From the IMG/VR virus record IMGVR_UViG_3300022752_000016: a stretch of DNA of 64,000 bases; one strand, given 5' to 3'. Positions within the stretch are counted from its first letter, which is position 1, and every line of letters begins with the position of its first letter. The translations under genes were made by a program, and so were the position numbers. This document shows, piece after piece, positions 2,449-57,296 of this stretch. This DNA comes from a virus. Lineage: Duplodnaviria > Caudoviricetes. The notes below the pieces were generated by a model that worked only from the letters and a program-made list of their open reading frames with translations, ran no database searches and was not told the DNA's origin.

Positions 2449-2473
2449 CAAACATATACAAACATGTTAATAT
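2445..2473 (+). promoter_or_regulatory. sigma70-type promoter with extended -10; ATG 6 nt downstream
   Basis: TTGACA (2445-50), 17-nt spacer, TG-n-TAATAT (2465-73), then 6 nt to the ATG at 2480. Confidence 0.7.
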
Positions 2474-2479
2474 AATACT

Positions 2480-2980
2480 ATGAGAATACTATTACTTGAT
2501 GACAACAGTTACAACCTAGAAACATTACCAGAAGAAATTGATGACTTACGATTTGCGATATTAGATAATAGCAACCCAAATAATGTTGATTATTACTTTA
2601 TTCCATTAGTATTTTTGGAATCGTTTAACAGTCCTGCATTAGTTCTACAGATTGGTGATCGTACTATAAAAATGCCCGTTGATTGGCAAATATTAATTGG
2701 AGAAAAAGATCATGGTGACTTAGAAACATTACCATTGTCAAGTTTAAATGATCGTGGATTCAGCGCATTTCAATTTAACCCAATAAGCAGTTTTAGCCCA
2801 GGTTTCTTGCCTGTAGAAATCATTGACATTTACAATGATGTTACTTGGTATGCACCTAGGCTACGTAATGGGCAATTTTTAAGCGTACCTATTGAAGATG
2901 GGCCTAAACCCCGATGTATATATTTTGTAAAAGAAATAAGCAGAAATTGTGAAATTGTAGATTATAGTCAAGTGTTTTAA
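2480..2980 (+). CDS. Conserved hypothetical protein, possibly a degenerate Hint-fold
   Basis: Clean 166-aa ORF. The hydrophobic pattern follows intein blocks A/B/F, but catalytic residues are absent (see findings). Confidence 0.6.
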   Translation: MRILLLDDNSYNLETLPEEIDDLRFAILDNSNPNNVDYYFIPLVFLESFNSPALVLQIGDRTIKMPVDWQILIGEKDHGDLETLPLSSLNDRGFSAFQFNPISSFSPGFLPVEIIDIYNDVTWYAPRLRNGQFLSVPIEDGPKPRCIYFVKEISRNCEIVDYSQVF

Positions 2981-5178: not shown

Positions 5179-5396
5179 TGGTTGATACTTCTTTTAAAAC
5201 AAGAAAAGGCACAGGATATACCTACGATTGCAAAGGTAGAAAAGAAAATCCAACACATATTGTTAAATGGTGTAGAAATAATTTCGGTGAGCGTGGTAAA
5301 GGTTGGGACTTTTACACGGTACAAGGGAATGTCCATATTGAAATTTGGGATAGCAAATATAAAATGATGTATGAACTTTGGAAATATAATGTATAA
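5178..5396 (+). CDS. Small paralogue 5
   Basis: KWCRNNFGE...WDF...IEIWDSKYKMMYELW. Confidence 0.65.
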   Translation: MVDTSFKTRKGTGYTYDCKGRKENPTHIVKWCRNNFGERGKGWDFYTVQGNVHIEIWDSKYKMMYELWKYNV

Positions 5397-5952
5397 TCAT
5401 GTAATGATTGATATGGAAACGTTAAGCACAGATCCAAACTGTGTAATATTAACAATAGGTGCTGTAAAATTTAATCCAAGGAGTACAGGTGTAATTAAAA
5501 AATTAGAATTAAGACCTACTGTTGATGAACAAATTGAAATTCATAATAGGACAATTAACGATGATACTTTACGCTGGTGGTCTGAGCAAAGCCCTGAAGC
5601 ACTTGAAGAAGCATTGGGAGACAGGGGAAGGCAATCATTTAAAGAGTGCATGGATATACTTTACAAGTTTTGTTGGAACTGTGATGCTGTTTGGAGCAAT
5701 GGTGCATCATTTGATATTGTTGTTGCTGAAACCGCATTTAGGCAAACTCTCATTGATCGCCCTAATCCTATTCCTTGGCCTTTTTATGCTATTAGAGATA
5801 CTAGGACTTTATACGAAATTGCGGGAGTCAAACTTAAAGATGGAGGTTACGTTACCACACACAAAGCAGTAGAAGATGCAGAACGTCAAGCAATTGTTGT
5901 ACAACAAGCGTATACTAAGTTAATTAAAGCAGGATTGTATGCGAATAAGTAG
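5389..5952 (+). CDS. DEDDh 3'-5' exonuclease (Rv2179c/DnaQ-like)
   Basis: Exo I MIDMET, Exo II WSNGASFD, RDTRT and Exo III H-KAVED. The ATG at 5389 overlaps the upstream stop and is preferred over 5371. Confidence 0.85.
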   Translation: MYNHVMIDMETLSTDPNCVILTIGAVKFNPRSTGVIKKLELRPTVDEQIEIHNRTINDDTLRWWSEQSPEALEEALGDRGRQSFKECMDILYKFCWNCDAVWSNGASFDIVVAETAFRQTLIDRPNPIPWPFYAIRDTRTLYEIAGVKLKDGGYVTTHKAVEDAERQAIVVQQAYTKLIKAGLYANK

Positions 5953-6523
5953 TGATATTGATATTGATTTGGCAGATCGTGAGTCACTATTAAAATTAAT
6001 AGAACATATTCCTGCATCAATAAGAAAAAACAATACAGTAAAAAAACATCCAACTGGTGTTTATGTAACAGATATACCATATGATCCAATTAACAACATG
6101 TCAGCATTGGATTATGAAATAGCAGAAAATAGAGGATATTTTAAACTTGATTTTTTAAATGTACATGTATATGGAAAAATTAAAGATGAGCAACATTTAA
6201 TAAACTTAATGTGCGAACCTAATTGGACAAATTTGTATAAAAAAGATTTTGTTGAAAAATTAATACATATTAATAATCAATTTGACATATTATTAAAAAT
6301 GCCAGAGCCTATCGATAGTATACCTAAATTAGCTATGTTTTTGGCAATTATTCGACCTGGTAAACGACATTTAATTGGTAAAACATTTGATGTAATTGAA
6401 AAAAGTGTTTGGGATAAAGTAGATGATAGTTATTATTTCAAAAAAAGTCATAGTTACAGTTATGCACAATTAGTTGTTGTGCATATGAATTTGCTTGATG
6501 AATCAAATAACTTTTTTAACTAG
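5939..6523 (+). CDS. dnaE: DNA polymerase III alpha (C-family) catalytic fragment, minimal C-terminal half
   Basis: DIDID, KHPTGVYV, GYFKLDFL, LAIIRPG and YYFKKSHSYSYA match DnaE DFDVD, KHAGGVVI, GLVKFDFL, VALFRPG and YGFNKSHSAAYA in order. Confidence 0.85.
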   Translation: MRISSDIDIDLADRESLLKLIEHIPASIRKNNTVKKHPTGVYVTDIPYDPINNMSALDYEIAENRGYFKLDFLNVHVYGKIKDEQHLINLMCEPNWTNLYKKDFVEKLIHINNQFDILLKMPEPIDSIPKLAMFLAIIRPGKRHLIGKTFDVIEKSVWDKVDDSYYFKKSHSYSYAQLVVVHMNLLDESNNFFN

Positions 6524-6883
6524 TGTTATACTACGCCTTTTTAATCTACGCTTATTTAAATCTTGTAAAGAACAAACAGGACCATGTAAAATAGTAAGAC
6601 TTTTTGTATTAAATGTGCGTAAAAATATTTTAAATGATGTCCATTCATCCTTTAAAAAAAGATTAATTGGTATTAATCTATTACTTTCCCACCACCAAAC
6701 CTCACCTAGCATTAAAAATCTGCTTTTTTCATCTCTATCAATTATTGCACCATAATCATACAATGTAGTCACAATGTCATCACTATTTTGGATTATTCCA
6801 ACATATTCTTGATTTGCATAGGATACAACAGACATAAAAGGGTGTGTATCACTTAATTTTTTTAAAAAATCATTATTAATCAT
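6503..6883 (-). CDS. Conserved hypothetical protein with basic C-terminus
   Basis: Clean 126-aa ORF with WWWESNRLIPINLFL and a KRRLKRR tail; converges on and overlaps the end of the dnaE fragment. Confidence 0.7.
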   Translation of the reverse strand: MINNDFLKKLSDTHPFMSVVSYANQEYVGIIQNSDDIVTTLYDYGAIIDRDEKSRFLMLGEVWWWESNRLIPINLFLKDEWTSFKIFLRTFNTKSLTILHGPVCSLQDLNKRRLKRRSITLVKKVI

Positions 6884-7760: not shown

Positions 7761-7789
7761 TTGTAATTAAGTCATATTTTTGTTAATAT
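7761..7789 (+). promoter_or_regulatory. sigma70-type promoter with extended -10; ATG 6 nt downstream
   Basis: TTGTAA, 17-nt spacer, TG-n-TAATAT (7781-89), then 6 nt to the primase ATG at 7796. Confidence 0.65.
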
Positions 7790-7795
7790 TTTCAG

Positions 7796-8767
7796 ATGTT
7801 TGACATATTATCCTTTATTCCAAGTAAAAAAACGTTAAGTCAAAGTGGCTGGCATAGTTTTAATGCAATATGTTGTCAATATCGTGGACATAGACAAGAT
7901 ACTCGAAAACGCGGAGGCATACGTTTAGCTAATAACAGTTGGCAATATCATTGTTTTAATTGTGGATTTAAAGCTGGTTTCTTTCTAGGTAAAAGCATAA
8001 CAAAAAATGCAAGACAGCTATTTAAATGGTTAAACATTGATGAGCAACAAATAAATCGTTGGAATCTAGAGAGTATACAACATCGAGATTTATTAGAAAT
8101 AATAAAAGTTCGTAAAGAAAATAAAAAAATAAAGTTTAAAGATTATAAAATAGAAGATGGAGAAATTTTAGATATTAAAAATAGTCAACACAAAAAGTAC
8201 ATAGAATATTTAAATAAAAGAGGATTGAAGCATGATTGCTATCCTTTTTTGGTAACTCCAAATTTAATTGGAAGAAAGGCAAATAGAATAATAATTCCTT
8301 TTACCTTTGAAGGAAAAATTGTAGGACAAACGTCAAGATTTTTAGATGATAAAAAACCTAAGTTTATTAATGATCAACAACCTGGTTATGTATTTGGTTA
8401 TGATTTACAAAAACCAAATTGGGAAATTTGTATTTTGTGCGAAGGTATTTTTGACGCATTAAGTATTGACGGGTGTGCCATAACACATAATGTTATAAAT
8501 AATGACCAAGTCGAAATAATTAGTAGATTAAATAGACGAATTATATTTGTTCCAGATCAAGATAAAACAGGATTATCTCTTTGTGATCAAGCACTTGAAT
8601 TAGGATATGAGGTAAGTATACCTGAATGGGATAATAATATCAAAGATATAAATGATGCAGTGGTAAGTTATGGTAAATTTAGTACTTTGCTAAGTATTAT
8701 ACAGGCATCGACAAATAATAAAATAAAAGTTGAGATGAGGAGAAAGGCTATTGCTAAAAGATTATAA
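7796..8767 (+). CDS. dnaG: DNA primase (zinc-binding + TOPRIM; gp61/DnaG-like)
   Basis: N-terminal CC...YHCFNCG zinc module, TOPRIM CEGIFD, PDQD and KDIND; adjacent to DnaB. Confidence 0.88.
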   Translation: MFDILSFIPSKKTLSQSGWHSFNAICCQYRGHRQDTRKRGGIRLANNSWQYHCFNCGFKAGFFLGKSITKNARQLFKWLNIDEQQINRWNLESIQHRDLLEIIKVRKENKKIKFKDYKIEDGEILDIKNSQHKKYIEYLNKRGLKHDCYPFLVTPNLIGRKANRIIIPFTFEGKIVGQTSRFLDDKKPKFINDQQPGYVFGYDLQKPNWEICILCEGIFDALSIDGCAITHNVINNDQVEIISRLNRRIIFVPDQDKTGLSLCDQALELGYEVSIPEWDNNIKDINDAVVSYGKFSTLLSIIQASTNNKIKVEMRRKAIAKRL

Positions 8768-19300: not shown

Positions 19301-21335
19301 TGCTCTTTCAGGTACAGGGTTAACAATTCATAGCCCTGCAAATGTAGCACAGACTACTAATTTAGCTGGCTCATATACTATTGGAGGCACAACACCCACA
19401 GTTACAACCATATCAGGCAATAATACAATTACATTTAATGCTACTCATGGACTATCAGTAAATGACGGAATCGTATTTACCAATACCTTTAACGGAATAG
19501 TAGGCGGAGAAGGGTATTGGGTGTCAAATATACCATCTGCTACACAAATTACAATAAAAAATGCATTTTTTGGTTCAGAAATTACAACATTAACAAATGC
19601 TACTGGATTAACTCAACCGGCTAGAGCCAATCCAGGCGTAGGTGCTACTTTAACTAATTCAGGACCTAATGCAGCTTTAGTAATAGATGGTATTACCTTA
19701 AGCGCCTCACAAAGAGTTTTACTTGTAGGGCAAACAACTGGTGGACAAAACGGTGTTTATGTTGTAACTAACCCTGGAAATGTAAGTGCAGCATGGGTTC
19801 TTACACGCTCTTCTGATATGAATAAGTATATACCAGGATCCGCATCTGGAATCGGCGCTGGAGATTATTTATTTGTTACACAAGGCTTAAATAATGCTGG
19901 TACAAGTTGGGTTTTATCGAATCCAACAGGTGAAATTATAATCGGTACTACAGCCATATCATTTAGTCAATTCAGTTCCGCAGGAGCCTATACAGCAGGA
20001 AATGGTATCACAATTACTGGCACTGTAATTACTGCTAATACAGATGGGGTTACGACTTCTATTGTTGGGGGTAATATAGTTGTTAAAACAAGTGCAAATT
20101 TGACCACACCAAATATTGGAGCAGCGTCAGGTACAAGTTTAACCGTATCAGGAAATATCACTGCTAATAATTTAAGCATAGGTAATTTAGCAAACATAGG
20201 CGGCAACATTACTACAGGTGGAAATTTATTTGCTAATTATAATATTCAGGCAAATGGAAATATTACAGCAAACAATGCTAATATTACTAACATATGTATT
20301 GCAAATATTTTCCAAGGAACATTTGCTAATGGAAATAGTTATATTTCTATTCCGACTGCCGGCGGTAGTATTGTTATGTATGTTAATGGTAATTCTAATG
20401 TAAGATTAAGTACTAATACATTAGGGGTAAATGTAAACCCAACCTTAACATTAGAAGGCGGTACTACAGCTTTGGGTTGGGGAAATGCTGGAATAGGTTT
20501 TAAAGTCTTAGCTGCTACATATACTGCAAATGGATATACTGGTAATAGTGTACAGAGCGAAAATCATATTCACGCTATTGCACAACCAACTATTGCCTCA
20601 AGCAATAGTAATGTAACTATTCAAAATTCATCAACATTTTATATTGCAGATAGACCTGCTGCAGGGACAAATATTACAATAGGCAATGCATATGCTTTGT
20701 ATGTTGCACAAGGTAATTCATATTTTGGTGGAAATTTAACTACTATAGGAAATATTACAGCAGGTAATTTTGTTGGAGCAGGTAATGGAGCACCTGCTAT
20801 TACAAGTAATAATACTTTAACTATTTCTGCTTCAAATGCACTTACAATTATTGGCAATAGCCTTGCATTAAGTAATGTAAATTCAATAAGTGCTGGGGCA
20901 AACACATCAAATTGCACATTAACTGGTAATTTTATATTGAGTGCAGGATCAAGGTTACAAGCTACTTATGCGGACTTAGCAGAATTTTATGAATCAGATT
21001 TTTTCTATGAACCTGGCACAGTGCTTGAATTTGGTGGTGACAAAGAGGTAACGATTGCGAAAAATGAAACCAACAAAGTTGCAGGAGTTGTAACCTCAAA
21101 TCCTGCATACATTATGAATGCAAATTGTTTAGGTATTGCTGTAGCAGTTGCACTACAAGGTAGAGTACCAGTTAAAGTAGAAGGAAATATCATAAAAGGA
21201 GATTTAATGGTTTCAAGTGGTAATGGATACGCTAAAGCATCATCAAGTCCTATTATAGGATCTGTATTAGGAAAAGCTCTTCAAAATTTTAAAGGAGCGA
21301 AAGGTATTATTGAAATAGCTATAGGAAGATTATAA
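16368..21335 (+). CDS. Long tail fibre / virion protein with Mtd-N-like N-terminus and C-terminal peptidase G2-type intramolecular chaperone
   Basis: IQQRTG...LPQLDEAEFGW N-terminus, Gly/Asn beta repeats, C-terminal ADLAEFY...PGTV...GVVTSNPAY...VALQGRVPVKV. Confidence 0.75.
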   Translation: MAIIQISKIQQRTGNLIDLPQLDEAEFGWASDEKKLFIGKTTPNENIEILTSYSTVNFDAIAGSYGNLNINPNTVGNGQILTFNGVNWVNRGGNAGGIINLGDVANLKILGGGIGYILETDGTGNLSWTPKGTLIAFIENATPSKVPLNQTVATTSYASNGNILIANTSGYLQDTPIVFTGTGFGNISTNTLYYVNSVSSGDSTIKITDVLGGSAISLTDANGNLGLNIVGTIVTTVANNFFTQGTEITVTDAAGMVQLNGNTFFIDVITANTFALYTNPALTDPVYSNNYNSYAYTSVTATDSATSTITVGNSSEFTLNAPVMFKGDLGNSDLIDGETYYVNNIVSGTEIKVSSFLFPNGIAGNTFPVDTDLTIFNSIVFQQGGRIISSIGGSTSTQASGSNTTIQFNNNNILDGDPDFTFDFGTTPKLVTLNGNANVGNLVANGIVSGTQLISNIPTLSGPPLIVTSTLRVSNLNVNYANVSDFSNVVSETTGNTYLILANNSTSGNYQLRSNSNLSFNVSTGNLIASILTATGNINGNNLIISNQSTTGNLIVTGNLSSNNWAANGIAFRTTPQTYTDSNTPGNAILSSTHISALSASNIDTANGNVTISNAATLYIAGAPSNASTNLTITNTYALMINSGNVLIAGNANIGNILTNVANITTINSGLLQNGNSNVTIAANGNITLNANGGARIIATSTGANVSGTLAVSGNANTANLGTTNLFANNLSLSGTSNGNINVATIANSLGFRIIPSTYTDNLSAPSSNVNVAAIHAIGRPTVTASNTAITANNLATFYIENAPNASTNMAITSPWALYIANGNSFFGQGIMFGDGSGIGNVRTISFGTSNVRVYQNANVEVSINGISNLATFFSTGFKVAGTIETTNGNIQANGNIIANGNISGGNAFFTGNANAALVGTAQITSPTGNLTISASGSNQSIFLVPSGTGTVDVAGKRLSQIGSVINPNDATNKEYVDALSGTGLTIHSPANVAQTTNLAGSYTIGGTTPTVTTISGNNTITFNATHGLSVNDGIVFTNTFNGIVGGEGYWVSNIPSATQITIKNAFFGSEITTLTNATGLTQPARANPGVGATLTNSGPNAALVIDGITLSASQRVLLVGQTTGGQNGVYVVTNPGNVSAAWVLTRSSDMNKYIPGSASGIGAGDYLFVTQGLNNAGTSWVLSNPTGEIIIGTTAISFSQFSSAGAYTAGNGITITGTVITANTDGVTTSIVGGNIVVKTSANLTTPNIGAASGTSLTVSGNITANNLSIGNLANIGGNITTGGNLFANYNIQANGNITANNANITNICIANIFQGTFANGNSYISIPTAGGSIVMYVNGNSNVRLSTNTLGVNVNPTLTLEGGTTALGWGNAGIGFKVLAATYTANGYTGNSVQSENHIHAIAQPTIASSNSNVTIQNSSTFYIADRPAAGTNITIGNAYALYVAQGNSYFGGNLTTIGNITAGNFVGAGNGAPAITSNNTLTISASNALTIIGNSLALSNVNSISAGANTSNCTLTGNFILSAGSRLQATYADLAEFYESDFFYEPGTVLEFGGDKEVTIAKNETNKVAGVVTSNPAYIMNANCLGIAVAVALQGRVPVKVEGNIIKGDLMVSSGNGYAKASSSPIIGSVLGKALQNFKGAKGIIEIAIGRL

Positions 21336-23344
21336 TGCTGGAGAAAAAATATTATGTTATTGGCACTACTAATGAGCAAGCATGGGATTACGTTCATAGC
21401 GTATTGACTGAAGATGGAAGTTTAGACGATAATATTCCAACTAGAAAAATTGAATGCACAGATTTAATTGAACACAGTCCTACAAGATCAGTTTATTTAA
21501 TGACAGATGAAGAGGCTAAAAAATTAAGCAAACATCCTAATATTATATTTGTACATATAAATCCAGAAAATCATCCAGAATTATTTCCAACAAATGTGGC
21601 AGATGATTTACATTGTAATACAGAAAGTTATAGATATGATAATTCAGTAAAAAATTATATGAATTTTGCTAATAGTCTTCCTGCAACTCCTACTTCAACA
21701 GATCTGAATAGAACAGGATATCAATTATTACGTCCTGCACAGTTTCAAAATCCATGGCAAGATTATGCTACAACTACAATTATAATGAGCAGGATTCCAA
21801 ATTCATTTACAGGTCGTAATGTAGATTTAGTAGTGGGAGATGATGGTTGTTGGATAGGTCACGTTGAATTTCAAAGTAATCCTATTGCCACTGATGGGAC
21901 TACTATACCTAAGCCTAGAGATTATTTACCTGGTAATGTTTTAAATAGAAATGCTACTTGCAATATCTTAGATATGGTTCTTGATGGTCCATATTATATT
22001 GATCCTAACTATTTTAATCAATCCCCATCAACAAGACTTATTACAAGATGGGACGGAACATTAGTACCTGAAGAAAATACCGCACGAAATTGGTGGGGGT
22101 TCGGATCTAATAGATCACCACAATTCGCTAACATAGGTACAGTGTCTATTCCTTCAAGTTATACTCGACTTAATACCGGTGGGTCAAATATTGCTATGCC
22201 AGCTGGGAGTGACGGAACGCATGGTACTCCTTGTGCAGGACTGTCATATGGTAGGACAATGGGGATAGCGTATAATGCAAACAAATGGTTTATCGATGCA
22301 TATGGATTGTACTCATTTTGGCCTAGTATAGACAGATATTTTAATATAATGAAAATTTTTCATTTGAACAAACCAATAAATCCTTTATATGGAACTAGAG
22401 ATCCTACTGTTTCTAGTAATAGTTGGGGATTCAGAGCAACATTGTCTGTAACGTCAGGTCAATATTTTTTTCGACAAGGAACATCAGGAACAGGTGGAGT
22501 ATTTTATAATAGTACGTCTATACCTGCCTTTATTCAAAATTTAGGAACTCAAGGCGATGCTAATCGGTTTAAAGGTGAAATGGCTCCGAATACTTTTACA
22601 ACTGCAGGAGATGAATTAATTAATAGTGGTGTTATATTTGTTGTAGCAGCAGGGAATAGTAATCAACAACAGGTAGGATCTGATCATCCAAATTATGATA
22701 ATTACTATTCCTTTGGTCCTAATCCATTAGTAAGCTCAACACACACAGAATTTAACGTAACTTGTTATAATACCACAAGTAGGCGTGGTTTTCCACAACA
22801 ATTAGGAAAAAGAATAGAAAATGGACAAGTAGTATATCCAGCAATTAATATTGGGGCACTAGATGATAATTATTCGTTAAATGGACAAGAACAAAAAGTT
22901 AATTATAGCGACATGGGAACAGAAATTGATATGTATTTGCCTGCGGATGGTACACTAACCCCAAACGCTAAGTACACTCCTCAATATTTGAGATATGATA
23001 AGTTAAATAATGGTATGGCTAATTATTATGATTGCCGTTTTTCTGGGACAAGTGCTGCCTGTCCTGTAGCTGCAGGTTTAATTGCTGCTATGATGGAAAA
23101 TAATCGTTCATGGACTTGGAAAGAAGTACGTGATTGGATAAGATCATTACAATTACAACCAAGTTCTACCTTTTATATAGGACCTAATCCAAACACAGCC
23201 ACTACTAATGAATGGTTTGATTATAATAGTTTACGAGGCGGACCAAGTCGTGTTGGTTATATAACTGCTAGTGTCACGCCCTCATCTATTGGCATTTCGG
23301 GAAGTTTAAACATCTCTGGTGATGGATTAAAAATTAATTTTTAA
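21335..23344 (+). CDS. Subtilisin-like S8 peptidase 1
   Basis: Triad DLVVGDDG / HGTPCAG / SGTSAACP, oxyanion AAGNS, N-terminal prodomain. Confidence 0.85.
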   Translation: MLEKKYYVIGTTNEQAWDYVHSVLTEDGSLDDNIPTRKIECTDLIEHSPTRSVYLMTDEEAKKLSKHPNIIFVHINPENHPELFPTNVADDLHCNTESYRYDNSVKNYMNFANSLPATPTSTDLNRTGYQLLRPAQFQNPWQDYATTTIIMSRIPNSFTGRNVDLVVGDDGCWIGHVEFQSNPIATDGTTIPKPRDYLPGNVLNRNATCNILDMVLDGPYYIDPNYFNQSPSTRLITRWDGTLVPEENTARNWWGFGSNRSPQFANIGTVSIPSSYTRLNTGGSNIAMPAGSDGTHGTPCAGLSYGRTMGIAYNANKWFIDAYGLYSFWPSIDRYFNIMKIFHLNKPINPLYGTRDPTVSSNSWGFRATLSVTSGQYFFRQGTSGTGGVFYNSTSIPAFIQNLGTQGDANRFKGEMAPNTFTTAGDELINSGVIFVVAAGNSNQQQVGSDHPNYDNYYSFGPNPLVSSTHTEFNVTCYNTTSRRGFPQQLGKRIENGQVVYPAINIGALDDNYSLNGQEQKVNYSDMGTEIDMYLPADGTLTPNAKYTPQYLRYDKLNNGMANYYDCRFSGTSAACPVAAGLIAAMMENNRSWTWKEVRDWIRSLQLQPSSTFYIGPNPNTATTNEWFDYNSLRGGPSRVGYITASVTPSSIGISGSLNISGDGLKINF

Positions 23345-23640: not shown

Positions 23641-26166
23641 ATGTCAGAAAAAAAGATATATCAAATTTGCTGTCATACTGAACAAGATTGGGACTTTATA
23701 CATGAGGTTTTGACAAAAGATGGCACATTAGAAGATAATATACCAACTAGGGCAGTTGAACTAGTTGATTACAAAGAACATAGTTCTACTAGATCCACTT
23801 ATCTTTTAAGCGATGACGAAGCCCAAGAACTTCAAAAAAATTCAAGAATAAAGTTTGTAAATATTGACTACGCAAGTTATCCTGAGTATAAACCGCCTAA
23901 AGATGAATTACACGCAGCTTTTTATAGATATCCCACTGATATTAAATGTTATAGAAATTTTTCAAATCCAAATATTATGCCAACAGATTTTACTGAGGCC
24001 GACAACAATCGTAGCGGATATCAATTATTACGTGTTACTCAAAAATTAGATCCATGGTATGGTGCAAGTAGTCAAACTGTTCTTGTAAATCGAATTGATA
24101 TGTCTGGTACAGGAAAAGATGTAGATGTGATTGTAGGCGATGAGGGTTGTGCTTTTGGGCATTGTGAATTTCAAACAAATACAGGATCAGGCCCAACCAG
24201 TTTAATTGGCGGTAATCCTCTTTCAACAACAGGTACGTGTATGTTGTTAGATTTAGTGCTTGAGGGTCCATATTACATTGATCCTGCTTATTTTAATGCA
24301 GAACCCTTATCCAGATTAACAACTAGATGGGACGGTACAACAGTTCCTGTCGAAACTGTAGCAAGAAATTGGTGGGGCAATAGTGCAGCTAGATCAAGTC
24401 AATTTAGTTCAATAGGTACTGTTACTATAACTTCATCTTATACTAGGGACAATTGTAACGGTGATAATCAATATTTTCCAAACGAAGGAGATCATGGTAC
24501 GTGTTGTGCAGCACTAACATATGGCAGAACACAAGGTTGGGCTTACAATGCTAATAAATGGTTCATTGATGCATATGGTTCTTACGGTGTTGGTTTAGAG
24601 CAATATTTTGACATTATGAAAATATTTCATTTAAATAAACCTATTAATTCAAAATATGGTACACGTAATCCTACTATTTCAAGTAACAGTTGGGGATATC
24701 GTGCTACATTGCCTATTTCAAGTGGTGCTTATTATTTTAGACAAGGTACTACTGGATCAGGCGGGGTGTCTTTTACAAGTAGTACTAAGCCTGAATTTAT
24801 GAAATATTTAGGAACAACAGGAGATGCTAATAGGTTCAAAGGTGAAATGTTAGATAATAGTTATACTGAAGCAGGCAATGAACTTATTGCATCAGGTGTA
24901 ATTTTTATAGCAGCAGCAGGGAATAGTAATCAACAACAGGTAGGATCTGATCAACCAGATTATAATAATTATTGGGCAACTGGTTTAAATGTAGCCCTTG
25001 CTAATGCAACACATTCAGAATTTGGATTAACATGTTATAATACTACAAGTAGACGTGGTTTCCCACAACAATTAGGTAAATATTTTGAGAATGGACAAGT
25101 AGTGTATCCAGCAATTAATATTGGTGCATTGGATGATCAATACATGTCTGATGGAAAAGAACGAAAAGTTAACTATAGTGATATGGGAAATCAAATTGAT
25201 GTTTATGCTCCAGCAGATGGTACAATGGCTGCAAATAGGAATTACAGTCCACAATATTTAAGACCTGACAGCTATCCAGGATCGGGGGTGCCAGAAGGAT
25301 TCGTTGGACTGTGTAATGCAGTTGCGTATTTAAATGGTACGTCAAGTTTTGATCCAGAACCAAATACAGGTTGGAGGTTAGTCACTAGTAATCAATCATC
25401 TGCGACATTGACTCCTATTCCCAGTGATTTAAAAGGAACTACAGGTTTAAGTTTATTATCACTGACAGGTGGAGACAATGATGATGGATATTATGGAGTT
25501 AATATATCAGGTGGCGGAGGATTTACAATTACCTTTGCAGGTACAACTTTTGGTAATGTCTACATAAACACCAATAGTTTAGTTACTTTTACAAGTGCAT
25601 ATATTCAACTTGTGTTTAATGTATCTACTCCAAATATGCGTAAAATTTGTATAAATGCAGACGATAATAGTTGCCAAAGATGTTGGGGTGGATTTGAAGG
25701 AACTGCTCCTAATAGAAGAATAAGATTTAGATATGAAGGTACTAATGATATAAGCGGAGTAGTTGGTAGTCCAAATATGGTTTGGGAATTAACCTTATAC
25801 GAAAATGCTAGAAACCAATTTGATATACAAATAGGTGTTAATGCTAGACAAACTTCACTATTTTATGATGCAGCATTTGGAGGCACTAGTGCTGCATGTC
25901 CTGTTGCTACTGGTTTTATTGCAACTGTTTTACAATATAATAGGAATTGGACTTGGAAAGAAGTGCGACAATATTTACAAAATTTAGAAGTACAAGATAC
26001 GACAAGGTTCTACCAAGGACCTACACCTGAAACTGCAAATAGTGTTTCTTGGGCAGATTTAAATAGTTTAATGGGGGGAGATAGACGAGTATTATATAAT
26101 AAGACAGATTATGTAAATATGTCAGGGAACAATTTGTCAATTACAGGAAGTAATTTTAGCTCCTAA
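23641..26166 (+). CDS. Subtilisin-like S8 peptidase 2 with inserted beta domain
   Basis: DVIVGDEG / HGTCCAA / GGTSAACP and AAGNS; ~200 extra residues before the catalytic Ser relative to paralogue 1. Confidence 0.85.
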   Translation: MSEKKIYQICCHTEQDWDFIHEVLTKDGTLEDNIPTRAVELVDYKEHSSTRSTYLLSDDEAQELQKNSRIKFVNIDYASYPEYKPPKDELHAAFYRYPTDIKCYRNFSNPNIMPTDFTEADNNRSGYQLLRVTQKLDPWYGASSQTVLVNRIDMSGTGKDVDVIVGDEGCAFGHCEFQTNTGSGPTSLIGGNPLSTTGTCMLLDLVLEGPYYIDPAYFNAEPLSRLTTRWDGTTVPVETVARNWWGNSAARSSQFSSIGTVTITSSYTRDNCNGDNQYFPNEGDHGTCCAALTYGRTQGWAYNANKWFIDAYGSYGVGLEQYFDIMKIFHLNKPINSKYGTRNPTISSNSWGYRATLPISSGAYYFRQGTTGSGGVSFTSSTKPEFMKYLGTTGDANRFKGEMLDNSYTEAGNELIASGVIFIAAAGNSNQQQVGSDQPDYNNYWATGLNVALANATHSEFGLTCYNTTSRRGFPQQLGKYFENGQVVYPAINIGALDDQYMSDGKERKVNYSDMGNQIDVYAPADGTMAANRNYSPQYLRPDSYPGSGVPEGFVGLCNAVAYLNGTSSFDPEPNTGWRLVTSNQSSATLTPIPSDLKGTTGLSLLSLTGGDNDDGYYGVNISGGGGFTITFAGTTFGNVYINTNSLVTFTSAYIQLVFNVSTPNMRKICINADDNSCQRCWGGFEGTAPNRRIRFRYEGTNDISGVVGSPNMVWELTLYENARNQFDIQIGVNARQTSLFYDAAFGGTSAACPVATGFIATVLQYNRNWTWKEVRQYLQNLEVQDTTRFYQGPTPETANSVSWADLNSLMGGDRRVLYNKTDYVNMSGNNLSITGSNFSS

Positions 26167-44412: not shown

Positions 44413-47400
44413 ATGGCACAACGTAATATAGATTTTGGAACATTTCCTGATGATCCAAATGCAGACGCTATTAGAACTGCATTTCAAAAAGTACAGGAAA
44501 ACTTTAACGAGTTATTTTCTATTACCACAAGTCAGGCTGTAATATCAATTAATAGAACACCTGGTGCAGGTATTACAGTAAATTCTCCAATAGGTAATGT
44601 CGTTATTACTGCAAATATTTCGAATGTACAAATAAGCACAAGCACTTTAAGTATAGGTAGGAATTTCGTTAACAGAGGAGCTTCTGGTGGTAATGCAAAT
44701 ATTGTAAATTCAAGTCAAGTTTTAGTAATTGATTTACCAAATACTATTGATAATGTATCAAATGTAAACTTAAGTGCAAATTTAAGTGCAAATTTTGTAA
44801 AAGCCAACACATCAATAATTTCTAACACAATTTTTGCAAATTCAACAATAACAGCAAATAACATTAATGTAAATGTTTCAATAGATACATCAAACATTAA
44901 TTCAACAAACGCAAATATTTCTTCAAATTTATTAGCAGGAAATGCATCTATTTCAGGCAATCTGGTTACAAATGATTTAAGTGTCACTGGTAATGTTACA
45001 ACAAACTTATTACCAAATGCAAACATAGCATACAATTTAGGTTCAAATACTCAAAGATGGAAAGACTTATACCTATCAGGAAACACTTTATACATAGGTA
45101 ATGCGACTATTTCAGTCAGCGGTAATAATTTAGTATTAACCAATCCCATAGGAGGTAATTTTGTTATTACTGGCAATACAACGGTTGCACAGGGTATTCA
45201 AGGAATACAAGGAATATTTGGGTTACAAGGACAACAAGGACTAAGCGGTGAGTACGCAGCTCAAGGAATACAAGGAAGGCAAGGACTACAAGGTTTACAA
45301 GGACTACAAGGACTACAAGGACTACAAGGAATAAGTGGGGAGTACGCAGGACAGGGAGTACAGGGCCTACAAGGATTTTTCGGAATACAAGGTAGACAAG
45401 GTGTCCAAGGGTTACAGGGACTATTTGTTCAAGGATCAACTGGTTCCCAGGGTTTAGATGGCATGCAAGGATCCCAAGGACGACAAGGGATACAAGGTTT
45501 AACGGGTGCTTTTGCAGGTCAAGGTATTCAAGGAAACCAAGGTGTTCAGGGTAGGCAAGGATTACAAGGCTTGGATGGATTTGCAGTTGCTCAAGGTATG
45601 CAAGGAGCACAAGGTACACAAGGTAGACAAGGATTATTTGGAACACAAGGATTTCAAGGATTACAGGGACTGCAAGGATTACAGGGACTGCAAGGATTAC
45701 AGGGTTTACAAGGCGTACAAGGGACACAAGGCGTACAAGGATTACAGGGCACACAAGGTGTACAAGGATTACAGGGCACACAAGGTGTACAAGGACTACA
45801 AGGTTTACAAGGTGTACAAGGCACACAAGGCAGACAAGGAGTACAAGGCACACAAGGCAGACAAGGAGTACAAGGTTTACAAGGTGTACAAGGCACACAA
45901 GGTTTACAAGGTGTACAAGGTACACAAGGAAGACAAGGTGTTCAGGGTACACAAGGTACACAAGGACTACAAGGTGTACAAGGCACACAAGGTTTACAAG
46001 GTGTACAAGGCACACAAGGAAGACAAGGTGTTCAGGGTACACAAGGTACACAAGGACTACAAGGACTACAAGGTTTACAAGGTGTACAAGGCAGACAAGG
46101 AGTACAAGGTACACAAGGTACACAAGGTACACAAGGCCTACAAGGTTTACAAGGTGTACAAGGCACACAAGGAAGACAAGGTGTTCAGGGTACACAAGGT
46201 ACACAAGGACTACAAGGACTACAAGGACTACAAGGTGTACAAGGCACACAAGGCAGACAAGGAGTACAAGGTACACAAGGTACACAAGGTACACAAGGTT
46301 TACAAGGTTTACAAGGCACACAAGGAAGACAAGGTGTTCAGGGTACACAAGGTACACAAGGACTACAAGGACTACAAGGACTACAAGGTGTACAAGGCAC
46401 ACAAGGCAGACAAGGAGTACAAGGTACACAAGGTACACAAGGCCTACAAGGTTTACAAGGTGTACAAGGCACACAAGGAAGACAAGGTGTTCAGGGTACA
46501 CAAGGTACACAAGGACTACAAGGACTACAAGGACTACAAGGGGTACAAGGCAGACAAGGTGTTCAGGGGACACAAGGACTACAAGGAGTACAGGGAACAC
46601 AAGGACTACAAGGAGTACAGGGAACACAAGGCAGACAAGGAGTACAAGGAACACAAGGTACACAAGGTGTTCAAGGACTACAAGGCGTTCAAGGTACTCA
46701 AGGTAGACAAGGAACACAAGGAACACAAGGAGCACAAGGAACACAAGGGTTACAGGGAGTTCAAGGCACACAAGGCAGACAAGGAGTACAAGGTACACAA
46801 GGTACACAAGGTACACAAGGCCTACAAGGTGTACAAGGCCTACAAGGTTTACAAGGTGTACAAGGCACACAAGGAAGACAAGGACTACAAGGACTACAAG
46901 GTTTACAAGGTGTACAAGGCACACAAGGAAGACAAGGAGTACAAGGTACACAAGGACTACAAGGACTACAAGGACTACAAGGTGTACAAGGACCACAAAG
47001 TATACAAGGACCACAAGGTACACAAGGACTACAAGGACTACAAGGACTACAAGGTTTGCAAGGGGTACAAGGACCACAAAGTATACAAGGACCACAAGGT
47101 ACACAAGGACTACAAGGACTACAAGGACTACAAGGGGTACAAGGACCACAAAGTATACAAGGACCACAAGGTTTACAAGGACCACAAGGCGTTCAGGGTG
47201 TACAGGGTTTACAAGGACCACAAAGTATACAAGGACCACAAGGTTTACAAGGACCACAAGGTTTTCAAGGAATACAAGGAATACAAGGACCACAAAGTAT
47301 TCAAGGCGTACAAGGCACACAAGGAACACAGGGTGTTCAGGGTTTACAAGGTGTACAAGGCACACAAGGAAGACAAGGTGTTCAGGGTACACAAGGTACA

Positions 47401-50010
47401 CAAGGTACACAAGGCAGACAAGGAGTACAGGGTACACAAGGTGTACAAGGACTACAAGGACTACAAGGAGTACAAGGCACACAAGGCAGACAAGGTGTAC
47501 AAGGTACACAAGGTGTTCAAGGTTTACAGGGAATACAAGGTATTCAAGGTATTCAAGGTACTCAAGGAACTCAGGGAGTGCAGGGGCTTGATGGGTTCGC
47601 AGTAGCCCAAGGAATGCAAGGGACACAAGGCATACAAGGTGTTCAAGGATTACAAGGTAACCAAGGAGTAGCAGGAATACCACAATCTTGGACATTAATA
47701 ACTTCGAGTCAACTCGCAGGGAGTGATACCAGATATATAGCAAATACAAGTGGAGGACCGTTCACATTAACTTTACCAGCCAGTCCAGTTTTAGGACAGG
47801 TAGTTATTGTAACAGATGGAAATAATTGGGCAGCAAATAATTTAACAATTGCAGGTAACGGATCTACAATTCAAGGATCCTATACTGACCTTATTTTAAA
47901 TATACAAGATATTACAGTAGAACTTGTCTATGACGGTACTACATGGTTAGTAACAGCAACATTGGGTCAACGAGGAGTTCAAGGACAAAGTGGAATACAA
48001 GGACTAGATGGTTTTCAAGGTGCACAAGGAACGCAAGGCATACAAGGCAGACAAGGCTTACAAGGTCCTACTGCTGCACAAGGTGCACAAGGAACACAAG
48101 GAGTTCAAGGAACACAGGGCAGACAAGGCTTACAAGGTCCTACTGCTGCACAAGGTGCACAAGGAACACAAGGAGTTCAAGGTACACAAGGTGTACAAGG
48201 CAGGCAAGGCATACAAGGCAGACAAGGATTACAAGGGCCTACAGCATCACAAGGAACACAAGGAACACAAGGAACACAAGGAACACAAGGGTTACAAGGC
48301 AGGCAAGGATTACAAGGGCCTACAGCATCACAAGGAACACAAGGAACACAAGGAACACAAGGGTTACAAGGGCTACAAGGCAGGCAAGGATTACAAGGAC
48401 CTACAGCATCACAAGGAACACAAGGGTTATACGGCATTCAAGGAAATCAAGGTATTCAAGGTATTCCTGGCACAGTAGCAGCACAGGGTATGCAGGGTCT
48501 TCAAGGACTACAAGGAGTTCAGGGAACGCAAGGAACACAAGGATTACAAGGACCTACTGCTGCACAGGGCGCACAGGGAACACAGGGACTACAAGGTAAT
48601 CAGGGGGTACAGGGCAGGCAGGGATTACAAGGTCCAACTGCTGCACAGGGCGCACAGGGAACACAGGGACTACAAGGTAATCAGGGGGTACAGGGCAGAC
48701 AGGGATTACAAGGTCCAACTGCTGCACAAGGTGCACAAGGAACACAGGGATTACAAGGGTTACAAGGTTTGCAAGGATTACAAGGTCGGCAAGGTTTACA
48801 AGGCCCAACTGCTTCACAAGGAACACAAGGTATACAGGGACTTAATGGATTATTTTCAGCACAGGGTACACAAGGATTACAGGGATCAGCAGGAGCAGGT
48901 GGCGGTGGTAACATAAGTGGTCCAGCAAGTGCTAGTGGTAGGGAAATAGCATACTTTACAAGTTCTACAACAATTGACACAGTACCAACTTTAACTTATG
49001 ATCAACCTAATGGTTATATTCAGGTAAAATCGAAGGATTCATTTGATGGCGGTGTGATACAGTTTTACAGTACTGGCAATACAAATTATACAATTTTTGG
49101 GCGTAAAGATACTGGTAGCAATGTAAGTCTTTGGTTACCCAACACAGTAGGCACTACTGGACAAGTATTATCTATTACTTTAAATTCTGGTCCAAGTGAA
49201 GCTCAATTGGGTTGGTCAACTGCGGCAACATACTTTAACACAGGAAATTATAGAATTCCTATTTATGATCCTGATAATTCAAGTTTAAGATTTTATGGAC
49301 CTACCATAGATAGTGATAACGTTATTACAACACGTAATTTTTGGGCTTCAAATACTATAGGTGGGGCAGATAATCCTTACTTAAGAGTTTCTGCACCATC
49401 TGCAAGGACTTATACACAATTTCAAAGAGCCGCAGGTGGCGCAAATACTACACTGTATTTACCGACAGCCAGCGCAAATTCTAGTTACGGTAGCTATTTG
49501 GGTGCAATTGATAGTCAAAATCAACTACAATGGATGTATGGTTTATGGGGCGATGCTGTACGAAGCGATACTACAAGTGCTGACTTTTATTATCCAACTT
49601 GGGTTAGAGACTATTTTAACGGCGCAAATAATATTGTATATATTTCTTCAAGCACTAGTAAGTTTGGTTATAGGCCAAGCTCAGGTACATTACAAGTTAC
49701 TGTATTAACTCAAACTTCTACTATACAAGATAAAGAAAATCTAAGACCTATTACAAATGCACTCTCAACTTTAAATCAATTTAGTACATATTTATATGAC
49801 AGAAAAGATGGGTCAGCCTCAAACGTTCCTGGTGTAATTGCAGAAGAAGTAGCTAATATCTTTCCTGAACTAGTTACTTATACAAGTAATAACATACCAA
49901 CAGGGGTTAACTATACACAATTTATTCCGTTATTAATTGAAGGAATTAAAAATCTAACAGAAAAAGTTGAGTTATTGGAAACTGAAATTAATAATCTTAA
50001 AAATCAGTAA
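44413..50010 (+). CDS. Collagen-like tail fibre with C-terminal peptidase S74-type chaperone
   Basis: N-terminal [26 protein letters not shown] attachment motif, long Gly-X-Gln tracts, C-terminal GVIAEEV...FPELV...[15 protein letters not shown]; ATAAATA at 44388. Confidence 0.88.
45190..47685 (+). repeat. 9-nt periodic collagen repeat, segment 1 (~830 aa)
   Basis: CAAGG recurs every 9 nt; triplets are G-[L/V/T/R/I]-Q. Confidence 0.95.
47965..48885 (+). repeat. 9-nt periodic collagen repeat, segment 2 (~305 aa) with regular GPTA(A/S)Q interruptions
   Basis: Same periodicity, punctuated by recurring ggtcctactgctgcacaa-like units. Confidence 0.93.
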
Positions 50011-55819: not shown

Positions 55820-56376
55820 CTACTAGAATAGAAAAAAATTGGAATTTTAATGCAGGCGTACATTTTTCAGATAAATTGTTGTTAAATAATTATATCATAA
55901 CATTGTCTATGGTAGTTGAAACGGAACAGGTACGTGAACAAAATATTGCAATGGAAAGGTTACATTATTTTATAAATGAAGTCCTAGATAATAGTATTTT
56001 TTTTGATCTAAATGATAAAAAAATAGAAGCTTTTAAAAATCTAAATTTAAAAATATGTTCGCTTCCTGAAGAACCATTTGATCAAATAATTGGAATCATT
56101 TTACTAATGAAATTTAATTCTATTCTTGAAAACAAATTAGTAGTCACAGATTTGTTTATAGAATCAAAACTAGGAGATTATGTTAAGTTTCATATTGTTC
56201 AAGAAATAGCCGAAAGTTTTTTTACAGGAAATAATTGGTGGAATAATGCATCCGCAAATATTTCAAATAATGAAAAAAATTCGGGAAAAAAAACTAAAAT
56301 AGTTAAATTATTTGATGATGATTGGTTAGGTTTAGGTTTGTCTTGGAAAGATCCTAAAGTTTGCCAAAAAAGTTGA
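55816..56376 (+). CDS. Hypothetical protein, possibly a degenerate QueD/PTPS T-fold
   Basis: FNAGVH...NNYIITLSM...EVLDNSIF...EEPFDQII resembles QueD strand spacing, without the His/Cys ligands. Confidence 0.35.
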   Translation: MTTRIEKNWNFNAGVHFSDKLLLNNYIITLSMVVETEQVREQNIAMERLHYFINEVLDNSIFFDLNDKKIEAFKNLNLKICSLPEEPFDQIIGIILLMKFNSILENKLVVTDLFIESKLGDYVKFHIVQEIAESFFTGNNWWNNASANISNNEKNSGKKTKIVKLFDDDWLGLGLSWKDPKVCQKS

Positions 56377-56400
56377 CTTATATATAAACTATGTTAAAAT
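56373..56400 (+). promoter_or_regulatory. sigma70-type promoter with extended -10; ATG 6 nt downstream
   Basis: TTGACT (56373-78), 16 nt, TG-n-TAAAAT (56392-400), then 6 nt to the ATG at 56407. Confidence 0.7.
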
Positions 56401-56406
56401 TGTTCT

Positions 56407-56916
56407 ATGAAGGTAGATAAATATGGTCAAGTTATACTAAATGAAGAGGACTTGTGTGAAGTATTATATACAAATCCAAACCATACTTTTGTAAAAGTTT
56501 TTACAGAAACTTTAATAAAAATTCCTAATTTCGTACATACTGGTAGTTTTATACCTTCTATAAATAACGATAATACAATAGAAGAATTTGATTATAAATT
56601 ACAAAAAAATTATTATATACCAGAAAAATATAAAAATTTTGATATTAAAAACCATATCAAAAATTTATGTAACAACAATTTAGAATTACATAGGGTAGAA
56701 TTAGAATTAAAGTTGTTTGAAAAATATGATATGATTAATTTGTTAATTTATTTAAAATACTTAGTAGATATTACAAAACTTCACAATATTGTTTTGGGTG
56801 TAGGCAGAGGCAGTAGTGTTGCTAGTTTTGTATTATACTTGCTAGGAATTCATAAAATAAATTCATTAAAATATAATTTATCAATAAATGAATTTTTTAA
56901 AGGAGAAAATTTATGA
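56407..56916 (+). CDS. dnaE: DNA polymerase III alpha (C-family) N-terminal palm fragment
   Basis: RVELELKLF...LIYLKYLVD...GVGRGSSVASFVLYLLGIHKINSLKYNLSINEFF matches DnaE RLETELQVI...[34 protein letters not shown]. Confidence 0.85.
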   Translation: MKVDKYGQVILNEEDLCEVLYTNPNHTFVKVFTETLIKIPNFVHTGSFIPSINNDNTIEEFDYKLQKNYYIPEKYKNFDIKNHIKNLCNNNLELHRVELELKLFEKYDMINLLIYLKYLVDITKLHNIVLGVGRGSSVASFVLYLLGIHKINSLKYNLSINEFFKGENL

Positions 56917-57296
56917 AGGTTAAAACTGCACAAGGAAAAACTTTGGATATGGGTGCACTAATCGCTAAAAATGAAAAAGCCAGAGCCGTAGGAAACATGA
57001 AGGTTAATGCAAGAGGAGATACAATTGATTCACATAATAATATTATCAAATCTGTAAATGAAAAAACAGCTAGTGGATATGCAAAAACAGTTGGAAATAA
57101 ATCAGGCCAAATTGTTCGTCAAACTCCTTTAAGTAATAATCAAAGTACTATGCACACCATTAATCAACTGCCTGTAAAACCAATTAATGATGAAGAACAA
57201 AATTTATTACAAGATTTACAAGAATTTATAGAGGATGATAAAGACCTTAAAAAAGAAACAAATGAAAAGGAAAAAAATGATAGTAAGGAAATTTAA
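56913..57296 (+). CDS. Hypothetical protein
   Basis: SD AGGAG; conserved-looking N-terminus RAVGNMKVNARGD. Confidence 0.65.
   Translation: MKVKTAQGKTLDMGALIAKNEKARAVGNMKVNARGDTIDSHNNIIKSVNEKTASGYAKTVGNKSGQIVRQTPLSNNQSTMHTINQLPVKPINDEEQNLLQDLQEFIEDDKDLKKETNEKEKNDSKEI

Follow-up and report, generated by a model that had tools for sequence, protein, structure and literature searches.

The window, as we call the whole 64,000-nucleotide stretch of viral DNA analysed here (Duplodnaviria; Caudoviricetes; IMG/VR record IMGVR_UViG_3300022752_000016), contains a short gene whose predicted product resembles a part of DnaE, the α subunit of bacterial DNA polymerase III (Pol III), and ends at a point from which the product of a second short gene, 50.5 kb away on the same strand, appears to continue. 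This raises the question of whether the two genes specify one enzyme in two pieces and, if so, of what kind this enzyme could be and how the supply of its two parts could be arranged. The two genes are as follows.

56407..56916, + strand: N-half of a split minimal Pol III α, 169 aa, assigned by PF07733, phrog_11127 and alignments with DnaE; its predicted parts are a family-specific N-terminal module (residues 1–68) and the first part of a Pol-β-like palm with the GS nucleotide-binding motif (residues 69–169)
5939..6523, + strand: C-half of a split minimal Pol III α, 194 aa, assigned by phrog_11778, motif order and VIA-align

The two genes and their relation to DnaE

The N-half carries the sequence GVGRGSSVAS at residues 131–140 and has the C-terminal end ...NLSINEFFKGENL. 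It matched PF07733 (DNA_pol3_alpha) in Pfam with an E-value of 2.4e-12 and a score of 47.5 bits against a cut-off of 23.9, residues 93–165 corresponding to positions 23–95 of the 260 in the profile, and it matched phrog_11127 (“DNA polymerase”) over its full length with an E-value of 1.3e-35. PF07733 was also above the cut-off on the N-half alone in four complete relatives and in GAP32. In a phmmer search against the PDB, residues 94–167 were aligned with residues 384–457 of Thermus Pol III α (E 3.3e-4) and residues 11–167 with residues 241–395 of E. coli DnaE (E 0.02), and both alignments had their end point in the F-E-R-F-L-N-P-E of DnaE. The structural model of the N-half alone had a pLDDT of 77.7. 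Foldseek gave no significant match in the PDB for the N-half alone or for the C-half alone, and C-family polymerases were recovered for each half only by an exhaustive search with VIA-align. In that search, the top seven matches of the N-half model were all C-family polymerases (Z 3.9–7.0, rmsd 2.9–3.8 Å, 89–99 residues aligned), with residues 69–169 mapping to E. coli 280–398, and the start of the N-half was placed after the PHP region of DnaE by both the PDB alignment and VIA-align. The GVGRGSS segment was invariant in the family alignment. The original prediction, which had described a 169-aa open reading frame (ORF) with GVGRGSSVAS that ends at a break within DnaE, was thus borne out by the ORF, PF07733 and the PDB alignments, and the product of 56407..56916, confirmed as an ORF and as a family match, is on this sequence evidence the nucleotide-binding half of a two-piece miniaturised Pol III α.

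The N-terminus of about 70 residues had been described as unique, and this also held: VIA-align, hhalign and Atlas searches linked residues 1–68 to no structure or profile beyond the family, and within the family they are conserved, with M1, D4, G7, Q8 and E13 invariant. When, for this module, the N-half profile was compared by hhalign with a PHP-containing DnaE fragment, residues 109–167 alone were aligned, so that homology of the module to the linker between PHP and palm was unsupported. Flavodoxin-like look-alikes of residues 1–68 were returned by the Atlas search and were set aside as weak (TM 0.41–0.46). At its other end, the N-half of the window has four additional residues, GENL (56901–56916), past the usual family end ...EFLK, and a similar C-terminal extension is present in P0005, its closest relative.

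The C-half begins with MRISSDIDID and matched phrog_11778 with an E-value of 1.3e-55. DnaE was not found for it by HMMER against the PDB, with either the single sequence or a 34-sequence profile. In the family alignment, its motifs stand in the order of DnaE: D-x-D-x-D at residues 6–10, KH-x-x-G at 36–40, K-x-D at 69–71, RP at 139–140 and KK-x-H at 168–171. Among 34 close homologues, D6, D8, D10, K69, D71, R139, P140, K168 and H171 were invariant, and R139 was replaced in the divergent member P0367. The predicted metal-binding Asp triad is D6, D8 and D71. The top seven matches of the C-half model in VIA-align were, again, all C-family polymerases (Z 5.3–8.1, rmsd 3.0–5.0 Å, 117–124 residues aligned), and the next unrelated match had a Z of 3.6. 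The assignment of the C-half to DnaE is based on motif order, the PHROG annotation and moderate structural Z-scores of 5–8. In the model, residues 66–192 map to E. coli 561–781 (fingers), and one VIA-align alignment spread residues 11–192 across E. coli 408–781 with just 119 residues aligned. Because of these spans, we read the C-half as having no thumb and fingers of about half size, with the RPG and KKSH motifs kept.

A further feature concerns the Arg of the FERF of DnaE (E. coli R390), which we take to be a triphosphate-binding residue. It aligns with Glu162 of the N-half. This replacement had already been noted for the window copy, with the suggestion that it may alter the handling of nucleotides, and turned out to be family-wide: Glu162 is at least 90% conserved among close N-half homologues, and Glu is also found at this position in PA5oct, GAP32 and the fused forms described below, with Arg in a bona fide DnaE fragment. 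As judged from these alignments, Glu at the R390 position is a family signature.

Known relatives and the probable kind of enzyme

An enzyme of this design has been described. Iyer et al. (2021; Viruses 13:63; PMC7824862, section 3.4.1 and Fig. 3b) reported a phage-specific minimal Pol III α in group 2.2 (Rak2-like) jumbo phages, which is split into an N-terminal protein that binds NTP and a C-terminal one that binds Mg and the template, their genes being far from each other, in addition to a family B polymerase; they read the enzyme as a polymerase and put it forward as a model for the ancestral form. By tblastn, we located both halves in PA5oct-like phages, GAP32, 121Q, CBB, BF, Atu_ph07, SCTP-2 and Phosso; in each case, a distance of tens to hundreds of kb separated the two genes. 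The window has in common with that system a stand-alone N-terminal NTP-binding protein with a GS motif, a separate C-terminal protein with Mg-binding aspartates and a template-binding part, the distance between the genes and the lack of other Pol III domains (Pfam recognised PF07733 only, and the protein lengths leave no room for more). The replication setting of the relatives is T4-like, with a family B polymerase, which was present in all five of five genomes with the split enzyme and was not seen within the window. It follows from the comparison of sequences that the window pair corresponds to the split minimal Pol III α described in 2021 for group 2.2 jumbo phages and that the window is a freshwater member, from an uncultured phage whose copy is 37–47% identical to those of cultured members. 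The window had no near match among sequenced phages, and sequence of its type recurs in lake and freshwater metagenomes.

As the enzyme itself was already described, the value of the present finding lies in confirmation and in added details. Those that, as far as we searched, go beyond PMC7824862 are the fused forms, the family-wide Glu, a conserved leaderless-type promoter and a clade-specific coupling with an exonuclease; the leaderless-type sigma70 promoter of the N-half and the coupling of the C-half to a DEDD exonuclease gene belong to the window clade, and neither is in that report. In the literature on the split enzyme after Iyer et al. (2021), we found no biochemical work.

Compared with DnaE and PolC of known structure (PDB 2HNH, 2HPI, 3F2B and 5FKU), the pair has the GS motif, the Asp triad, KxD, RPG and (N/K)KSH in the same order, and likewise a palm and fingers. 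However, DnaE/PolC comprises about 1160 aa in one chain, whereas the split pair comprises about 363 aa in two and is without PHP, thumb, clamp-binding, OB and tau-binding domains; it also has Glu for Arg390, and the 68 N-terminal residues of the N-half are without a counterpart. Among the known relatives of the bacterial replicase, the split mini Pol III is the smallest. Its occurrence in environmental giant phages is very frequent, each half being represented by at least about 8,000 sequence clusters. For further study, the window offers as handles a modelled heterodimer interface, single-chain fused forms, the Arg-to-Glu signature and a candidate exonuclease partner.

We judge it quite probable that the pair is a two-subunit mini C-family enzyme with an accessory polymerase role. 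In this proposal, the N-half would be the nucleotide-binding part and the C-half the metal-binding part of a two-subunit C-family (Pol III α/DnaE-like) nucleotidyltransferase, and the two proteins would most likely fold jointly into one Pol-β-like palm and a reduced fingers domain. The N-half would contribute the GS-motif helix-loop that holds the triphosphate, and the C-half the catalytic Asp triad together with the RPG and KKSH motifs of the fingers, in a heterodimer without the PHP domain, thumb, clamp-binding segment and OB domain. Catalytic activity is predicted from these motifs, and the most likely biological role would be that of a short-patch or accessory DNA polymerase, for gap filling, primer handling or repair, and not that of the main replicase.

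Because a thumb and a clamp-binding element are absent and Glu takes the place of DnaE Arg390, the predicted enzyme may be something other than a conventional templated DNA polymerase. The alternative that arises from this is an active nucleotidyltransferase that is, for example, terminal or primer-independent, adds ribonucleotides or uses unusual nucleotides, and whose different chemistry would be reflected in the Arg-to-Glu change and the missing thumb. Such an enzyme would be in keeping with the presence of Glu in at least 90% of the family and also in distant members, with the deleted thumb and halved fingers, and with the lack of a clamp-binding or OB region as judged from protein lengths and Pfam; moreover, enzymes with the Pol-β fold include many non-polymerase transferases. 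Nevertheless, the RPG and KKSH fingers motifs are strictly kept, and in DnaE these contact the incoming nucleotide and the template. Furthermore, both genes are located in replication modules beside a primase, helicases and a clamp loader, and the enzyme was read as a polymerase by Iyer et al. (PMC7824862). On balance, we consider the non-templated transferase unlikely and retain the accessory polymerase as the preferred reading.

Conservation, co-occurrence and pairing of the halves

The split had been predicted to be stable and selected, and to gain evidence on this point we determined NG86 dN/dS values for pairs of IMG/VR homologues that were at least 80% identical in protein sequence and had a dS of 0.05–2. 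Over 31 pairs of the N-half, the median was 0.084, and over 135 pairs of the C-half, it was 0.072; these values are rough, as the pairs are non-independent and dS is near 1, yet they are far from 1. For the C-half of the window and its closest relative, dN was 0.093 and dS 0.687. Relaxed selection was thus looked for and not found on either half. The absence of the partner half was likewise looked for: both halves were present on 9 of 10 long IMG/VR contigs, including all four complete ones. The N-half was found on four of five contigs picked for the C-half and the C-half on all five picked for the N-half, and the sole contig without the partner is a 54%-complete fragment, past the end of which the N-half is expected by arithmetic. 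On the IMG/VR contigs with both, the two genes are on the same strand, with the C-half gene 37–120 kb upstream of the N-half; in relatives, the distance was 34–120 kb. At 90% identity, at least 7,982 clusters of the N-half (~168 aa) and at least 7,991 of the C-half (~193 aa) were obtained, stand-alone among the matches listed. Taken together, the dN/dS values, the co-occurrence and the thousands of stand-alone clusters bear out the prediction, and the comparison of sequences supports a split that is stable and under purifying selection, equally strong on both halves.

The break itself had been claimed to show essentially no gap or overlap and no intein signatures. From the FF of the N-half to the DID of the C-half, there are 10 intervening residues, and natural fused forms have 11 at this place, in agreement with the first claim; in DnaE, the corresponding number is about 8. 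As to the second, direct reading revealed no intein halves at the break: both proteins end or begin at the junction, and no Cys/Ser+1 nucleophile or His-Asn is present.

The fused forms emerged from a filter-free profile search with the C-half, which returned 475 clusters at 50% identity, among them one 375-aa protein with the match at residues 190–371. Its first 182 residues were matched to the N-half profile with 99.4% probability, and PF07733 continues across its junction. With two more fused proteins from other samples, which are 78–81% identical to the 375-aa one, three fused clusters were found (P0288, P0393 and P0394; 375–376 aa), in which the N-half is followed by the C-half, as in DnaE, with the two joined at the break; their source is three short metagenome contigs from different samples. 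The positions of two of the genes are as follows.

L010:1066-2193: fused N-half/C-half gene, in a C-half-type locus with the small antisense ORF next to it
L011:519-1649: fused N-half/C-half gene, in the same type of locus, again with the small antisense ORF next to it

Like the split pair, the fused single-chain mini Pol III has the two modules in DnaE order, the motifs including Glu and an antisense ORF after the gene; it differs in being one chain of 375–376 aa with an 11-residue joint. Because these rare natural fusions are in DnaE order and exactly at the break, they may be taken as evidence, independent of the selection and co-occurrence data, that the halves act as one unit.

Structure prediction points in the same direction. 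When the C-half was modelled alone, residues 1–72, which include the catalytic strands, had a pLDDT below 50, and the mean was 69.7; in the complex model with the N-half, the pLDDT of the C-half rose to 89. The complex model had a score of 0.89, against 0.00 for the best of three controls. In the calibration set, 58 of 80 solved complexes attained this mark, as did 2 of 110 mismatched pairs, although with custom alignments these counts hold only roughly. Three runs gave at least 92% contact agreement and a partner pLDDT of at least 89. In the modelled interface, residues 1–11, 27–32 and 58–71 of the N-half contact residues 43–51 and 65–68 of the C-half. The complex model supports binding, but because the halves belong to a protein with solved single-chain relatives, likeness to those DnaE structures may explain the score. 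From the model, we infer that the halves form a heterodimer, in which the first 68 residues of the N-half would pack on the palm strands of the C-half and be part of the interface. The suggestion that the N-terminus serves as a dimerisation module is, therefore, retained in the model with respect to an interface role, but the partner is the C-half and not a second copy of the N-half.

It might be argued that the N-half works alone or with a partner other than the product of the gene at 5939, for example as a nucleotide-binding regulator, and that the complementarity of the halves is a relic of an old gene break, since the genes are 50 kb apart in different transcription units and the stand-alone model of the N-half is fair. 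However, we regard this as very unlikely in view of the co-occurrence of the halves on 9 of 10 long contigs, the natural fusions joined at the break, the ordering of the C-half catalytic strands only in the complex model and the equally strong purifying selection on both halves. A decaying fragment of a captured host dnaE, or one half of a trans-spliced, intein-split DnaE, can practically be dismissed: only a 75-residue stretch of the N-half is detectably DnaE-like by sequence and intein-joined split DnaE genes are well known in cyanobacteria, but pseudogene decay and intein trans-splicing are both rejected by the N-half dN/dS of 0.084, by thousands of full-length stand-alone homologues of equal size and by a break that leaves no room for intein halves and has no intein signature (Cys/Ser+1 or His-Asn). 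The cyanobacterial system (DnaE-n and DnaE-c) resembles the phage pair in that a C-family polymerase is derived from two distant genes; its break is at a different site. As the phage halves have no intein halves, they would not undergo trans-splicing and, as parts of the proposed two-subunit polymerase, would work as a non-covalent pair.

Expression units and neighbouring genes

The following features bear on the expression of the two halves and on their surroundings.

56373..56400, + strand: sigma70-type promoter, TTGACT-16-TAAAAT with TG-n before the -10 box, ending 6 nt before the ATG of the N-half
2465..2482, + strand: second extended -10 promoter of this type, separated by 6 nt from an ATG and located where the run of genes leading to the exonuclease and the C-half begins
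5371..5952, + strand: Rv2179c-like DEDD 3'-5' exonuclease gene (PF16473, E 3.9e-32), with a 14-nt overlap with the start of the C-half
6503-6883, - strand: small antisense ORF, 126 aa, directly after the C-half
56913..57296, + strand: small gene, 127 aa, whose ATG overlaps the stop codon of the N-half (ATGA)
44413-50010: 1865-aa ORF, probably a fibre protein, with long stretches of collagen triple-helix repeats (PF01391, E 2e-160) and, at its C-terminus, an endosialidase-chaperone domain
21335-23344 and 23641-26166: two adjacent large ORFs with a subtilase (Peptidase_S8) domain, in a structural gene block

The N-half had been predicted to have its own sigma70 promoter. Within the window alone, such promoter sites were not above chance (17 against 21.2 expected), and it is the conservation in the loci of relatives that bears the prediction out. 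A -35 box, a spacer of 16–18 nt and a -10 box were present in 45 of 71 unique regions upstream of N-half homologues, compared with 38 of 1420 random ATGs in N-half loci; the conserved -10 box ends 5–8 nt before the ATG, and exactly 6 nt before it in 39 of the 45, and the sequence around the promoter is otherwise diverged. The usual distance from the -10 box to the start site puts the start of transcription at or next to the A of the N-half ATG. With the -10 box only 6 nt before the ATG, the mRNA of the N-half would thus be leaderless or nearly so.

The pattern TGTTAWWMT-N6-ATG occurred three times in the window (at 2465, 7781 and 56392) against 0.49 expected, each time at a real gene start, although the pattern was derived from these same sites. 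At 2465-2482, 7781-7798 and 56392-56409, an extended -10 box (TGTTAAnAT), itself preceded by a -35 box, lies 6 nt before the start of a replication-module gene, and a Shine-Dalgarno sequence is absent. This arrangement implies leaderless mRNAs for three replication-module genes (starts at 2480, 7796 and 56407).

The promoter at 2465..2482 is likely the start of an operon that includes the exonuclease and the C-half, and transcription of the C-half would proceed from it. A promoter-like site before the exonuclease gene at 5371 was present in only 2 of 49 relatives and was not counted as real, which indicates that the C-half is normally internal to an operon. The N-half, therefore, heads its own unit, and the C-half is 50 kb away inside an operon. 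Separately controlled expression of the halves had been proposed. The part of this claim that stands is the N-half's own unit, with its promoter conserved in 45 of 71 loci; the promoter architecture at 2480, the start of the operon, is, however, like that of the N-half, which argues for co-regulation. We accordingly favour co-regulation of the N-half and C-half over separate control, as the shared architecture suggests.

In 72 of the 80 closest IMG/VR loci, the 3 kb upstream of the C-half contained a homologue of the exonuclease, encoded on the strand of the C-half; many of these homologues abut the C-half, and some of the loci are cut by contig ends. In PA5oct, GAP32, Phosso and one complete IMG/VR genome, the exonuclease is elsewhere or absent. 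The exonuclease may be regarded as a candidate accessory (proofreading) partner, in the environmental clade only. One could go further and suppose that the family Glu and the loss of the thumb mark a changed substrate or reaction, that is, a ribonucleotide- or modified-nucleotide-adding or primer-independent transferase, which in the environmental clade would act together with the translationally coupled DEDD exonuclease as a machine of three parts, produced from leaderless early transcripts. We put this forward as an unlikely proposal; if it is true, the pair would represent a minimal C-family enzyme whose task differs from replication.

The replication genes of the window are a helicase, a primase, a DnaB-like helicase and a clamp loader. 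The order at the C-half locus is helicase, three small conserved genes, C-half, small antisense ORF, virion protein, primase and DnaB-like helicase, and that at the N-half locus is N-half, small ORF, GroES/gp31-like gene and then clamp loader. The small gene at 56913..57296 is followed by the GroES/gp31-like gene and, farther on, by the clamp-loader gene (matches to phrog_14844, phrog_931/3188 and phrog_168). PA5oct, GAP32 and Phosso share the arrangement of genes around both halves, and the order of N-half, small ORF and chaperonin-like gene in particular is also found in PA5oct and GAP32. A counterpart of the antisense ORF at 6503-6883 occupies the equivalent position in PA5oct, GAP32, Phosso and a fused-form contig. 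Elsewhere in the window, G+C is raised to 0.38–0.45 around the ORF at 44413-50010, compared with about 0.31 in the remainder.
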